From assembly GCA_964635295.1 (NCBI GenBank), contig CAZWOB010000001.1, positions 47,743 to 111,742 of the forward strand: DNA of 64,000 nucleotides. Direction: 5' to 3'. Every line of letters starts with the position of its first letter. The stretch's first letter is position 1. This DNA comes from an uncultured bacterium (GTDB taxonomy: Bacteria; Chlamydiota; Chlamydiia; Chlamydiales; Waddliaceae). Shown here in pieces: positions 50,038 to 56,256 of this stretch. Under the pieces are notes generated by a model. It was not told the DNA's origin, searched no databases, and saw only the letters and a program-made list of their open reading frames with translations. The position numbers and the translations under genes are program-made.

Positions 50038-51327
50038 ATGTCAACAGACGTCAAAGTTGGCATTAGTGATATCGCCATCTATCTGCCACGTCTCAAAATT
50101 ACACTTGAGGCGATCATCAAAAAAAGGGTCGCGGAATCCGAAGGGAAGTCCCTGGAAAAAATCCTTAAGAGGACCCTGGAAAAAACCGGGCTGTTTTCCA
50201 TGCATTTCCCCGAGACATGGGAAGATTCCGTTACGATGGCTGCGCAGGCTGCATTGAAGCTGATCAACCGTAAACAATTCAATTTAAATGCGCTCCGATA
50301 TTTAGTTTCCGGGACAGAAACCGGAGTCGACCACTCAAAGCCGCTGGCGTCCTACGTCATCGGAATCCTAAAAAAAGCAGGGATTCCCATTCCCCAATCA
50401 ATCTCCTCTTTTCAGACACAGCATGCTTGTGCCGGAGGCACAGTTGCCTTGATGGCTGTTTCTGCGTTGCTGGGCTTTACCAATGCTCCAGGCGAATCGG
50501 GAATCGTCCTCTGTTCCGATATCGCGCGATATGGAAAATGCACATCTGCAGAGATGACACAGGGAGCAGGCGCGATCGCCCTGCTGACTGAAACCAACCC
50601 TAAACTTGTTGAGCTCGATCTAAAGACTGCCGGATACAGCTCCAAAGACGTTGACGATTTTTTCCGTCCGCTTGGATCAGAGATCGCGAAAGTGAAGGGA
50701 GGGTTCTCCATCCGGTGTTACATGGAAGCGATGGACTCTGCCCTTGTCGATCTCGCCTCCCGCGCAGGTACAACGCCGGAAGAGCTGCTAAGGTCTGCCG
50801 ACATGTACGCGCTGCATGTACCCTACCCTAAATTGCCGACAGATACGATCAAGTATCTTCTTGGGAAATACTGTGAGGAAGATGATGACACCATCGAAAG
50901 CACCCTGAACGAAAAAGGGTTTTATGAAATGACGGCACCCGCTTCCAGAAGCGGAAATATCTACACCGGTTCGATGTTCATGTCGTTGGCCTTTCTCCTT
51001 AAAAACCGCTATGAGCTCATGGGTGACGCGATTATTGGTAAGAAGGTCCTGATGGGCTCTTACGGATCGGGTAACACAATGGTCTTTATGTCCGGAACGA
51101 TCGCGCCAAATGCGCCTGAAGTGATCAAAAACTGGGACCTTGAAGGAATATGGGACCACCAGGAATCGACCATACAGGATTATGAGACCTGGATCTCCTC
51201 CAACGGGACGACAGCGGAACAATACGCTTTAGGAATGGAGTCTAAACGGTCCGCCATTCAACCGAACACATTCTTCCTGGACCGAATACGCGAGGACGGA
51301 TACCGTGAGTACAGCTACACCGAGTAA
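50038..51327 (+). CDS. mvaS: hydroxymethylglutaryl-CoA synthase
   Basis: 429 aa. VGISDIAIYLP, SGTETGVDHSKP, QHACAGGT (catalytic Cys context). Thiolase-fold length. Confidence 0.8.
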   Translation: MSTDVKVGISDIAIYLPRLKITLEAIIKKRVAESEGKSLEKILKRTLEKTGLFSMHFPETWEDSVTMAAQAALKLINRKQFNLNALRYLVSGTETGVDHSKPLASYVIGILKKAGIPIPQSISSFQTQHACAGGTVALMAVSALLGFTNAPGESGIVLCSDIARYGKCTSAEMTQGAGAIALLTETNPKLVELDLKTAGYSSKDVDDFFRPLGSEIAKVKGGFSIRCYMEAMDSALVDLASRAGTTPEELLRSADMYALHVPYPKLPTDTIKYLLGKYCEEDDDTIESTLNEKGFYEMTAPASRSGNIYTGSMFMSLAFLLKNRYELMGDAIIGKKVLMGSYGSGNTMVFMSGTIAPNAPEVIKNWDLEGIWDHQESTIQDYETWISSNGTTAEQYALGMESKRSAIQPNTFFLDRIREDGYREYSYTE

Positions 51328-52378
51328 CATACCCAAAAGAAAACAGGATCATCTAGATGCGTGCATGAATCAACCGGTCGAAGGGACCGGTTCTCCTTTT
51401 TTTGAGGACGTGATGTTTGTGCATCGCGCGCTCCCTGAACTCAACGTTTCCGAGATCGATACGCAATGCGAATTCCTTGAAAAACAGATCTCGCTACCTC
51501 TTTTCATTTCCTGCATGACCGGAGGGTCGGAGCAGGGAAAAAATGCTAACCGCGAACTCGCGAAGGCCGCACAGGAACTGAATATTCCCATTGGATTGGG
51601 ATCGATCCGCGTTCTATTCAAAAATCCTGAGAGGGCTGAAGATTTTCAACTGCGTCAACACGCGCCGGATGTGCCAATTATTGCAAACATCGGAGGAGCG
51701 CAGCTTTTGGAGACCTCCATACATGAGATCCGTGAATGGCTGGAAAAACTGGAAGTGGACGCTCTGGCCGTTCACCTGAACTGCGGGCAGGAGCTTTTCC
51801 AGGAAGGCGGCGACACCAAATTCCGCGGCATCCTCGACGCGATTGAAAAGACCATAGACAACCTCTCGCACCCGGTCATTGTCAAAGAAACAGGATTCGG
51901 GATCAGCCCCCGGGAAGTCAAAGAATTGATCGGTATAGGAGCTCACTATGTCGATATAGCTGGAGCCGGCGGAACAAATTGGGTGACAGTTGAAATGCAT
52001 GGAAATCCCTCTGAAGACTTTGCCGGCAGCAGCTTCATGGACTGGGGAACACCTACCGCCGTACTGCTTGATACCGTCAGGGAACATCAGGGAAAAATTC
52101 TAAGTTCCGGCGGACTCAGATCCGGAATGGACCTGGCAAAATCCATTGCCCTGGGCGCTGTTGCCGGAGGGATGGCACTCCCCTTTATTCAGGCCGCGAT
52201 CGATGGTGGAAAAGATGAAGCGGTTGTTTTTGGAAGGACGATTGAAAAAGTCTTGAAATCCACTATGCTCCTCACAGGGTCGCAAACAATTGAAGACCTG
52301 CAAAGACAGCCCTTGATCAGATCGAGTGAATTCGAACACTTCGTCAAATCGCTAAAACAGATCGACTCCTCGACATGA
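51305..52378 (+). CDS. fni: type 2 (FMN-dependent) isopentenyl-diphosphate isomerase
   Basis: 357 aa. KRKQDHL, FISCMTGGS, GLGSIR, VKETGFGIS, DIAGAGGTNW. Confidence 0.85.
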   Translation: MSTATPSNIPKRKQDHLDACMNQPVEGTGSPFFEDVMFVHRALPELNVSEIDTQCEFLEKQISLPLFISCMTGGSEQGKNANRELAKAAQELNIPIGLGSIRVLFKNPERAEDFQLRQHAPDVPIIANIGGAQLLETSIHEIREWLEKLEVDALAVHLNCGQELFQEGGDTKFRGILDAIEKTIDNLSHPVIVKETGFGISPREVKELIGIGAHYVDIAGAGGTNWVTVEMHGNPSEDFAGSSFMDWGTPTAVLLDTVREHQGKILSSGGLRSGMDLAKSIALGAVAGGMALPFIQAAIDGGKDEAVVFGRTIEKVLKSTMLLTGSQTIEDLQRQPLIRSSEFEHFVKSLKQIDSST

Positions 52379-54542: not shown

Positions 54543-55384
54543 AAATCACGGTTCCGGGAAACTTACTTCTATTTGGAGAGTATGCCATCACCTATCCGGG
54601 CGGACTTGGGATCGCAGTCGCGACTGATGCGAAACTTATCGTTGAAACAAGGCCCTCAGACCAATTATCCATTTCTGGAACTTTCGGAAATAAAACATAT
54701 CGCTGGACTGAAGGAAGCCCTTTCCCCTCACCTCTGGTAGAGTACATTGTCAAAACTCTAAATGTCTTCCCCTCCCGCCATATCCATATTGACTCAAGCG
54801 CCTTTTATTATCCCGATGGAAGAAAAAAAGGGTATGGTTCCAGCGCAGCCGTCACTATCGGCCTTGCTTGCGCACTATTGGAACCAGCAGACAAGGAAGC
54901 GCTTCTTACCCAATCATTAAAGCTACACAGAGGATTTCAAGGCGGTAAGGGAAGCGGATATGATATCTATGCCTCTTGTAAAGGAGGTGCGGGCCTGTTT
55001 AGAGGGGGTGAAATTCCAACATGGGAGTCTTTGAAGCCTGGGCTTTTCCAGACACTCCATCTTCTTAGAGGTGAACTACCTTGCGATACCCGCCAAGCCC
55101 TGCGACACCTGCACCAACTCGAGAAACAAAAGCCGAATGACGTCGCTGAATTTCTCAACAGATCAAATGTTATAGTCAACAACCTTTCCCATTCTCTTCA
55201 AAATTTTCAAAAATCGATCGAACTGAATCATTGGATTAATGCTCAGCTCTCTCAAAAGCTGCCCTGGAGAGAAGAAACAATCAAGCCTTTAGGCGCTGGA
55301 GGAGAGATCGGAGCAGCATTAGCGCCTTGGCCGAATAGCGAACCGTTGATCATCAGTCAGGATGGCGTTCAATGGCAGCAGTAG
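54539..55384 (+). CDS. mvaK2: phosphomevalonate kinase (GHMP family), short form
   Basis: 281 aa. PGNLLLFGEYAITYPGG, GYGSSAAVTIGLA. Assigned mainly from its position between mvaD and mvaK1. Confidence 0.65.
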   Translation: MKITVPGNLLLFGEYAITYPGGLGIAVATDAKLIVETRPSDQLSISGTFGNKTYRWTEGSPFPSPLVEYIVKTLNVFPSRHIHIDSSAFYYPDGRKKGYGSSAAVTIGLACALLEPADKEALLTQSLKLHRGFQGGKGSGYDIYASCKGGAGLFRGGEIPTWESLKPGLFQTLHLLRGELPCDTRQALRHLHQLEKQKPNDVAEFLNRSNVIVNNLSHSLQNFQKSIELNHWINAQLSQKLPWREETIKPLGAGGEIGAALAPWPNSEPLIISQDGVQWQQ

Positions 55385-56256
55385 GAAGCGCACCCACAAA
55401 ACTCCTGCTTTTCGGTGAGCACTCCGCAGTTTACGGTTTTCCAGCCGTCGGCATCCCCCTTTCGTGGAGAATCACTGTCACGCTTAAGGACGCGGACAGG
55501 TTCTGCTGGAAGATCGACTCTTCCCATCTCTCCCGCTTGAATCCTATTCTTCCTCGACTTACTCGCATCTTCCCCGAAATCAAAACACCATTTGAAATCG
55601 CAGTACATTCTGATGCCCCTATCGGAGTGGGCTTTGGCTCCTCTGGAGCTTTATGCGTCGCCATTGCCCGGGCGGTTTTCGCAAAGATCGGTCATGAGCC
55701 AACAACAGAGGAAGTCTGGACACGCGCTCATGCATTGGAGTCTCATTTCCACAACAACCCTTCAGGGGTAGATACAGGAATCTCAACGATGGAGCAGGCG
55801 GGTTTCCTAAAAAAAGATGGTGGTTCCCTCCCCTCGTTTCAGCAACTGAACAAAAAACTACCTTGTCTTATCATCGGAGCATTTCCCCGCTGTTCAAACA
55901 CGGGAAATTTGATTTCTGGACTCCGTCATAAGCTTGAGACTGAGCCTCAATCTATCAGGCATATCGAGGAGTTGGGCAGGATCGCTGAAGAATCGATTGC
56001 TGTAATGGACAATCCGATGAAGTTCGGTGAATTGGCAAATATGGCTCACAACCATTTAAAAACACTCGGGTTATCAACCCCCGAACTCGATCGGTTTTTA
56101 AAAACAGCTATTTCCCACGGTGCTTTTGGCGGAAAATTAAGTGGCGCTGGAGGCGGCGGCGCCTTTTACCTTGCATGTGAGAATAGTCAGTCTGCCAAAG
56201 AAATTATTCAAAACCTTTCCTTTCCCTCACTCCTTGCACCTAGTATTATTAATTAA
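55372..56256 (+). CDS. mvaK1: mevalonate kinase (GHMP family)
   Basis: 294 aa. PTKLLLFGEHSAVYGFPA, PIGVGFGSSGALCVA, GKLSGAGGGGAF. Confidence 0.8.
   Translation: MAAVGSAPTKLLLFGEHSAVYGFPAVGIPLSWRITVTLKDADRFCWKIDSSHLSRLNPILPRLTRIFPEIKTPFEIAVHSDAPIGVGFGSSGALCVAIARAVFAKIGHEPTTEEVWTRAHALESHFHNNPSGVDTGISTMEQAGFLKKDGGSLPSFQQLNKKLPCLIIGAFPRCSNTGNLISGLRHKLETEPQSIRHIEELGRIAEESIAVMDNPMKFGELANMAHNHLKTLGLSTPELDRFLKTAISHGAFGGKLSGAGGGGAFYLACENSQSAKEIIQNLSFPSLLAPSIIN

Follow-up and report, generated by a model that had tools for sequence, protein, structure and literature searches.

Which route supplies isoprenoid precursors in an environmental relative of Waddlia chondrophila, and where the genes for it came from, are the questions raised by six genes on a 64-kb stretch of chlamydial DNA (contig CAZWOB010000001.1 of assembly GCA_964635295.1, positions 47,743 to 111,742; hereinafter the window, numbered from its first letter). 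The six are consecutive, overlapping open reading frames (ORFs) on the + strand, span window positions 50038-56256 and make up a mevalonate operon. In the reading that we regard as highly probable, this is a functional, classical mevalonate operon with a single promoter and the ortholog of the W. chondrophila operon. It would have descended vertically in Waddliaceae after an ancient event in which the whole operon passed between Spirochaetota and a chlamydial or Planctomycetes-Verrucomicrobia-Chlamydiae (PVC) ancestor, and, to judge from W. chondrophila, it most likely takes the place of the methylerythritol phosphate (MEP) pathway. The W. chondrophila operon was published in 2010 (Bertelli et al., PMC2878342), and Spring et al. 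(2016; PMC5148204) reported that its enzymes affiliate with Spirochaetes and suggested lateral transfer. New here is an uncultured relative that carries the same operon.

The identities of the genes are well defined for five of the six. Four of the proteins exceed the NCBIfam equivalog cut-offs of their families. Specifically, the second gene, fni (51305..52378, 357 aa, GTG start), encodes a type-2, FMN-dependent isopentenyl diphosphate (IPP) isomerase (IDI2; TIGR02151, 372 bits against a cut-off of 281; PDB 2zru, E=4e-69 from residue 8). The third, mvaA (52375..53610, 411 aa), encodes a class II 3-hydroxy-3-methylglutaryl-CoA (HMG-CoA) reductase (HMGR; TIGR00532, 316 bits against 260; PDB 6dio, 5wpj and 1qax, E ~1e-83 to 1e-86). 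The fourth, mvaD (53607..54542, 311 aa), encodes a diphosphomevalonate decarboxylase (MDD; TIGR01240, 240 bits against 171; PDB 2gs8, E=3e-49), and the sixth, mvaK1 (55372..56256, 294 aa), a mevalonate kinase (MK; TIGR00549, 181 bits against 163; PDB 2oi2, E=1e-26 over the full length). The first gene, mvaS (50038..51327, 429 aa), encodes an HMG-CoA synthase (HMGS): both Pfam domains, HMG_CoA_synt_N and HMG_CoA_synt_C, pass, PDB 5hwo matches with E=7e-55, and the 294 bits against TIGR01835 lie under the cut-off of 360, yet this model is clearly the best match. The catalytic motifs align with those of the solved enzymes, namely GTETG..HSKP, TQHAC.GGT and HVP..K of HMGS with 5hwo, EEPSV, THNKGIMNG, GND.RA and GHM.LHA of HMGR with 6dio, the AAGLASSSS loop, SA.RS motif and TMDAGP of MDD with 2gs8, and the MK-type K..L.GEH, GSS and S..D of MvaK1 with 2oi2. 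The fifth gene (ORF5, mvaK2-like, 54539..55384, 281 aa) encodes a short GHMP kinase whose fold, phosphomevalonate kinase (PMK)-type motifs and position in the operon point to a PMK. These results bear out the gene assignments that an earlier reading of the letters alone (the sequence-only reading) had made, with ORF5 a generic GHMP kinase by profile.

MvaD scores only 108 bits against the phosphomevalonate-decarboxylase model NF040704, the cut-off of which is 475, and a domain search of all six ORFs found no isopentenyl-phosphate kinase (amino-acid-kinase) domain. The pathway is therefore of the classical type rather than the archaeal-type variant. In such a pathway MvaS would make HMG-CoA from acetoacetyl-CoA and acetyl-CoA, HMGR would convert HMG-CoA to mevalonate, MvaK1 would phosphorylate mevalonate to mevalonate-5-phosphate, and the PMK-like kinase would probably carry this on to mevalonate-5-diphosphate; MvaD would then yield IPP, and IDI2 would convert IPP to dimethylallyl diphosphate. 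The products would supply the precursors of bactoprenol and quinones in a Waddliaceae-like chlamydia.

The HMGR has one structural peculiarity. Compared with PDB 6dio, residues ~133-146 carry a 7-residue deletion in the ‘cofactor helix’ before GGG, where the sequence reads IIPRMVER-GGG. The motif Dx(V/L)xxxL has been associated with NADH and (H/Y)xSxxxR with NADPH (PMC13488460). The window sequence matches neither, its terminal Arg alone being NADPH-like, and because the helix fits neither motif the cofactor preference of this HMGR is not predictable.

The layout of the operon is compact. From ORF1 to ORF6 the junctions overlap by 23, 4, 4, 4 and 13 nt, and the coordinates of the sequence-only reading, which had described six + strand ORFs with 4- to 23-nt overlaps, were recovered exactly. 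Each of the three 4-nt overlaps is of the ATGA start/stop type. The GTG start of fni, and hence the 23-nt overlap, is supported because the alignments to the IDI2 model TIGR02151 and to 2zru both begin at residues 8-11, before the next ATG, which is at residue 21. An AGGAG box lies 8-12 nt 5’ of the mvaS start, and no recognisable Shine-Dalgarno sequence was found upstream of mvaA or of the ORF5 gene. As far as the letters allow, the ATGA overlaps and the missing Shine-Dalgarno sequences at these two genes fit coupling by termination and reinitiation, and the six genes are probably co-transcribed and translationally coupled. A terminator scan gave no convincing terminator 3’ of mvaK1, the best-scoring hairpin falling within the mvaK1 coding sequence.

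The region upstream of mvaS probably contains the promoter of the operon. A candidate sigma-70-type promoter, TTGACT-16 nt-TATAGT, is located at 49969..49996 on the + strand, where the sequence-only reading had placed it, and agrees with the consensus at 10/12 positions. Sigma-70-like sites number 11 over the region versus 7.1 +/- 2.5 expected, so that the count alone is not above chance. The site lies within a block of 76 nt (49962..50037, +) that also includes the 5’ leader with the AGGAG ribosome-binding site, and 70 of the 76 nt (92%) agree with the corresponding block ahead of mvaS in W. chondrophila. By comparison, DNA identity to W. chondrophila is 63-75% for the six genes and 55% for the sequence further upstream. 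W. chondrophila and Waddlia sp. L006 have the same -35 hexamer as the window, while the -10 box reads TATAGT in the window versus TTTAGT in W. chondrophila. Because the 76-nt block is better conserved than the coding sequence, it is likely to be a functional promoter plus leader. An Rfam scan of the operon and leader returned nothing at E<=1.

The operon of the window is the ortholog of that of W. chondrophila. In strain WSU 86-1044 (CP001928.1, ~1,193,652-1,199,899) the same six genes occur in the same order, encode proteins of 432, 355, 411, 311, 283 and 302 aa (429, 357, 411, 311, 281 and 294 aa in the window), and meet at overlapping junctions that likewise include three ATGA-type overlaps. 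The leader of 76 nt with its TTGACT is common to both, and amino-acid identity along the operon is 85, 82, 73, 68, 58 and 62%. The same block of genes, pyrG-ruvX-EVE-GATase(-)-RimK(-), precedes the operon in the closed W. chondrophila chromosome and in the window. The two loci differ at their edges. In W. chondrophila alone, an inserted transposase and small ORF separate RimK from the mvaS leader (L085, 3688-5371), and a complete F-type ATP synthase operon directly follows mvaK1 (L085, 11776-18274), whereas the window has no transposase upstream and continues downstream with hypothetical and RasGEF-domain genes in place of the ATPase operon. A second relative, Waddlia sp. L006, has kdsB-pyrG-ruvX upstream and G6PD downstream in common with the window. 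Thus, the position of the operon is fixed and its inheritance is vertical within Waddliaceae.

In database-wide searches the closest named homologues of HMGS, HMGR and PMK are the W. chondrophila proteins, with 85%, 73% and 58% identity, respectively. The host is an uncultured Waddliaceae-like environmental chlamydia and does not belong to the Chlamydiaceae, the family named in the sequence-only reading. The window sequence is also contained in several JGI/ENA assemblies, at least four of them independent, with 99.95-100% identity, and in sediment, seawater and aquatic metagenome runs, which are DNA runs only and include no RNA runs.

The genes just 5’ of the operon (47679-49879) comprise an EVE-domain gene followed by a divergent pair that encodes a class II glutamine amidotransferase (GATase_4) and a RimK-type ATP-grasp ligase, an arrangement also found in W. 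chondrophila. In a Waddliaceae metagenome-assembled genome (MAG; CAVVNU010000022.1, L001 7851-8669), the HMGR match covers ~2/3 of the gene and the database protein has 305 aa, possibly as the result of a frameshift or assembly error in that MAG.

Outside the chlamydiae, the operon resembles those of Spirochaetota. A genome scan with the PMK family profile was used to collect loci, and the best 80, which were thus chosen by PMK similarity, comprise 3 chlamydial loci and 77 from Spirochaetota or unclassified MAGs. In tblastn comparisons with the six window proteins, the order HMGS-IDI2-HMGR-MDD-PMK-MK is shared by the chlamydial loci and the majority of the spirochaete loci, with identities of 28-54%; for proteins of environmental Spirochaetota the identity to those of the window is 32-53%. 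Because the loci had been picked by PMK similarity, database-wide nearest-relative searches were added for HMGS and HMGR beside that for PMK; the other three proteins were compared within the loci. For PMK, chlamydial matches come first and nearly every named match below them is from Spirochaetota. Similarly, for HMGS and HMGR the chlamydial matches are followed by named matches that are almost all from Spirochaetota, the exceptions being one ‘Chlamydiia bacterium’ and one unclassified ‘bacterium’. The sequence-only reading had proposed a route that was horizontally acquired or at least lineage-restricted, and this proposal holds, with horizontal acquisition by a chlamydia probable.

One spirochaete counterpart is bb0683-bb0688 of Borrelia burgdorferi, which is hmgs-fni-hmgr-mvaD-pmk-mvk (PMC3364977) and has a gene order identical to that of the window operon. 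The PMKs of Borrelia and other spirochaetes belong to the same divergent family as ORF5, and the thiolase of Borrelia, BB0109, is encoded elsewhere, the window cluster likewise being without a linked thiolase. The spirochaete loci differ in that their genes are mostly split by short spacers and their PMKs have ~300-330 aa, whereas the window genes overlap and the kinase has 281 aa. The Borrelia HMGR structure 9zw6 matches the window HMGR with E=2e-61, weaker than 6dio, 5wpj and 1qax.

The Gram-positive cocci, with which the sequence-only reading had compared the operon, turned out to be much more distant, the relevant relatives being Spirochaetota with the same six-gene order. Streptococcus pneumoniae, Staphylococcus aureus and Enterococcus faecalis have the same enzyme set, with a classical pathway, a class II HMGR and a type-2 IDI, and solved MDD, MK and HMGR entries, which we take to be from these cocci, significantly match the window proteins. 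But their HMGS matches with E ~1e-30 (7e-55 for 5hwo), their PMKs (1k47 and 3gon) match with E ~3e-8 in the N-terminal part, and their genes are split, mvaK1-mvaD-mvaK2 lying apart from mvaS and mvaA (or a fused mvaE).

The best reading of these relationships is an ancient exchange of the whole operon between Spirochaetota and a chlamydial or PVC ancestor of Waddliaceae. The operon has a GC content of 0.50 and a GC content at third codon positions (GC3) of 0.43-0.57, level with the neighbouring core genes pyrG, kdsB and G6PD, and because its composition is unremarkable against these genes, any transfer must be ancient. A phylogeny of mvaS had been proposed earlier as a check on its origin. In a neighbour-joining tree of HMGS (100 bootstraps, with representatives of 50%-identity clusters, taxon labels having been obtained for two clusters), the chlamydial sequences fall into a single clade (96% bootstrap), and the neighbours of this clade are one ‘PVC group bacterium’ cluster and one Spirochaetota cluster. 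The deeper nodes have at most 26% bootstrap and do not separate a chlamydial clade nested in Spirochaetota from a sister clade. The tree therefore defines the chlamydial group and, because of its backbone, not the direction of transfer. The transfer was probably into chlamydiae, given that the pathway is common among Spirochaetota but seldom present in members of the PVC group.

Alternatively, the operon could be an ancestral bacterial or PVC trait that Waddliaceae retained by vertical descent and other chlamydiae lost, with no horizontal gain. Such a history would accord with the composition of the operon, which is not anomalous compared with core genes, with its stable chromosomal position across Waddliaceae, and with the label ‘PVC group bacterium’ on the closest outgroup cluster. 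It would however require many independent losses, and would have to accommodate the use of MEP by P. amoebophila and C. trachomatis (PMC2878342). Five of the genes also occur in a more distant chlamydial MAG (L023), and a review regards the origin of the bacterial mevalonate pathway as unresolved. Among sequenced PVC members, on the other hand, all use MEP except W. chondrophila and one subdivision-5 strain, and the enzymes of the other mevalonate-using strain in the group differ in their affinity, which is proteobacterial (PMC5148204). With Spirochaetota, moreover, all six genes have in common both their order and 45-53% identity. The sequence-only reading had held that an operon universal and vertical in its host clade would speak against acquisition; this is the situation at the level of the family, where its position is conserved, and not at the level of the phylum. 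We therefore consider a purely vertical history improbable and prefer the ancient exchange with Spirochaetota.

The fifth gene calls for a closer look. The most likely assignment of ORF5 is to a divergent subfamily of phosphomevalonate kinases. Its small size, pointed out in the sequence-only reading, is confirmed and is the rule in its clade, with 278-297 aa in the 16 closest homologues against a family median of 316 aa. In an alignment of 22 family members the three GHMP motif regions are kept, and the shortness is due to trimmed loops compared with relatives of 300-330 aa. Profiles cannot name ORF5 because it and 21 relatives match MK and PMK models about equally and far under the cut-offs. 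Specifically, ORF5 scores 44.5, 41.9 and 39.1 bits against curated MK and PMK models; its 39 and 42 bits compare with PMK cut-offs of 165.7 and 500, respectively, and it passes no NCBIfam cut-off.

The family profile and the predicted structure are more informative. Searched against the PDB, the family profile matches Listeria innocua Lin0012 (3k17) over the full length with E=3e-26, the best MK with E=5e-12, and the PMK entries 1k47 and 3gon with E ~3e-8 in the N-terminal part only. The AlphaFold model of ORF5 is a confident GHMP fold (pLDDT 94.8, pTM 0.92), and Foldseek places Lin0012 at the top (E=9e-18, TM 0.79), followed by MKs, with S. pneumoniae PMK 3gon in 19th place. Lin0012 is a structural-genomics GHMP kinase whose PDB title gives no activity, and which we take to be the Listeria PMK ortholog. 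It resembles ORF5 in GEYAV, K-x-G-L-GSSAA, GS..D and a C-terminal glycine-rich motif, and differs in its length of 365 aa, ORF5 being without the long insertions that follow S..D in Lin0012, in the Lys of PGK where ORF5 has Asn, and in an identity of only ~16%.

In the motif alignments ORF5 has GEYA in common with Lin0012 and S. pneumoniae PMK, and all three carry a Lys at the second residue ahead of the GxGSS loop (K-x-G-x-GSS), whereas at the same alignment positions MKs have GEHA and a gap in place of the Lys. The signature of the family is P-G-N-L-L-x-x-G-E-Y-A ... K-x-G-x-G-S-S-A-A ... Q-G-G-x-G-S-G-Y-D ... G-A-G-x-E. Motifs II and III are thus present, and the motif-I Lys of the TIGR01220/ERG8 type is replaced. 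Specifically, motif I of ORF5 is P-G-N, and Asn8 is invariant in 120/120 homologues, whereas Lin0012, S. pneumoniae PMK and MKs all have the Lys (P-G-K). Finally, the slot of ORF5 between mvaD and mvk is that of pmk bb0687 in Borrelia.

Two other views of ORF5 have to be weighed. In the first, its family is a GHMP-kinase subfamily common to Spirochaetota and Waddliaceae that activates the acceptor in another way or has a broader or different substrate range, for example performing both phosphorylations where no MK follows, as in L023. We give this only a small chance. In L023 (9986-11787), an uncultured Chlamydiae chromosome (OY969110.1), HMGS-IDI2-HMGR-MDD are accompanied by a 271-aa PMK-like gene; the ORF after it has no match to the mevalonate kinase of the window, so that the MK is elsewhere or missing, and by eye, without a profile, we presume this ORF to be lgt.

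The second view, slightly less probable still, is that ORF5 is not a PMK at all but a second mevalonate kinase or a GHMP kinase for another substrate, the PMK step being encoded elsewhere or bypassed. A single-sequence PDB search with ORF5 gives weak N-terminal matches only, the best of them archaeal mevalonate kinases, whereas the family profile clearly favours Lin0012 over MKs. Many MKs rank just under Lin0012 in Foldseek, and the near-equal low profile scores and the invariant Asn in motif I also speak for this view, but GEYA and the Lys before GxGSS are as in the PMK-type proteins and unlike MKs. A bypass would find no isopentenyl-phosphate kinase domain in the operon, and with a bona fide MK (ORF6) and a diphospho-specific MDD already encoded there, a PMK is required. 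Together with the slot shared with Borrelia pmk, these points favour the assignment of ORF5 as a divergent PMK.

The operon most likely replaces MEP in the host. This proposal is made by analogy with W. chondrophila, in which only one MEP gene was found (PMC2878342), and the loss of MEP would accompany it. No MEP gene is included among the annotated genes of the window. A catabolic role, in which the cluster would use mevalonate or HMG-CoA as in Pseudomonas mevalonii, is suggested by the label ‘HMG-CoA reductase, degradative’ of TIGR00532, which the HMGR matches; but the match to PDB entries of biosynthetic class II HMGRs is just as good, and the cluster combines HMG-CoA synthase, MK, the PMK-like kinase, MDD and IDI2 with no HMG-CoA lyase, which makes this role very unlikely.

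The GC content of the window, in 2-kb steps, rises from ~0.43 to 0.50 across the operon and is 0.39 directly after it. This step was considered as a sign of recent transfer and rejected, as it is gone on comparison with the neighbouring core genes, the drop being due to low-GC lineage-specific genes downstream. A recent transfer, or a binning or assembly chimera that put a spirochaete fragment on a chlamydial contig, would explain the step but is refuted, and left with next to no probability, by the same junctions in the closed W. chondrophila chromosome and in the independent metagenome assemblies and by GC and GC3 values equal to those of the flanking core genes.

Several points nevertheless weigh against the functional, horizontally acquired and biosynthetic operon that we propose. 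The scores of ORF5 far under every PMK cut-off and its Asn in place of the motif-I Lys have been described, as has the low support of the deep branches of the HMGS tree. Furthermore, the counterpart genes in Borrelia are reported not to be co-transcribed. Among the enzymes of the operon and the PMK-like family of spirochaetes and Waddlia, the assayed enzyme is the Borrelia HMGR only. In addition, a PROSITE-style regular expression for thiolase signatures, run with no positive control, gave no match in the 64-kb window or in any of 87 related loci, in agreement with the earlier remark that the cluster lacks an acetoacetyl-CoA thiolase.

The remainder of the window contains features of a different kind. 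Positions ~1-31,000 are a tailed-phage (Caudoviricetes-like) prophage region within the chlamydial contig. It encodes a P22-like portal protein (17520-19598, - strand; Pfam E=3e-65, PHROG portal E=3e-71), a major head protein (15227-16165, - strand; PHROG E=2e-37) and several further phage-only families, and small ORFs with DUF551, DUF1064, HTH and SocA_Panacea domains lie at ~22.3-31 kb. The chlamydial phages known so far are Microviridae. Directly 3’ of the operon are two genes for large proteins with eukaryote-like RasGEF domains (57398-59407 and 60414-62387), which are candidate host-interaction effectors; a RasGEF protein is also encoded near the operon in W. chondrophila. The 657-aa ORF is broken into pieces of 392 and 261 aa in one of the JGI assemblies (L081) by a 26-nt duplication at positions 61546-61571 of the window.

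The operon described here probably adds an environmental relative, from sediment and seawater, to the small group of chlamydiae that use mevalonate and not MEP, and it shows that Waddliaceae have kept the operon, its place in the chromosome and its promoter region. The family shares its divergent PMK-like kinase with spirochaetes, including Borrelia. One paper describes fosmidomycin-type MEP inhibitors as inducing persistence in Chlamydia (PMC6818789). Chlamydiae that use the mevalonate operon would be expected to be insensitive to such inhibitors.

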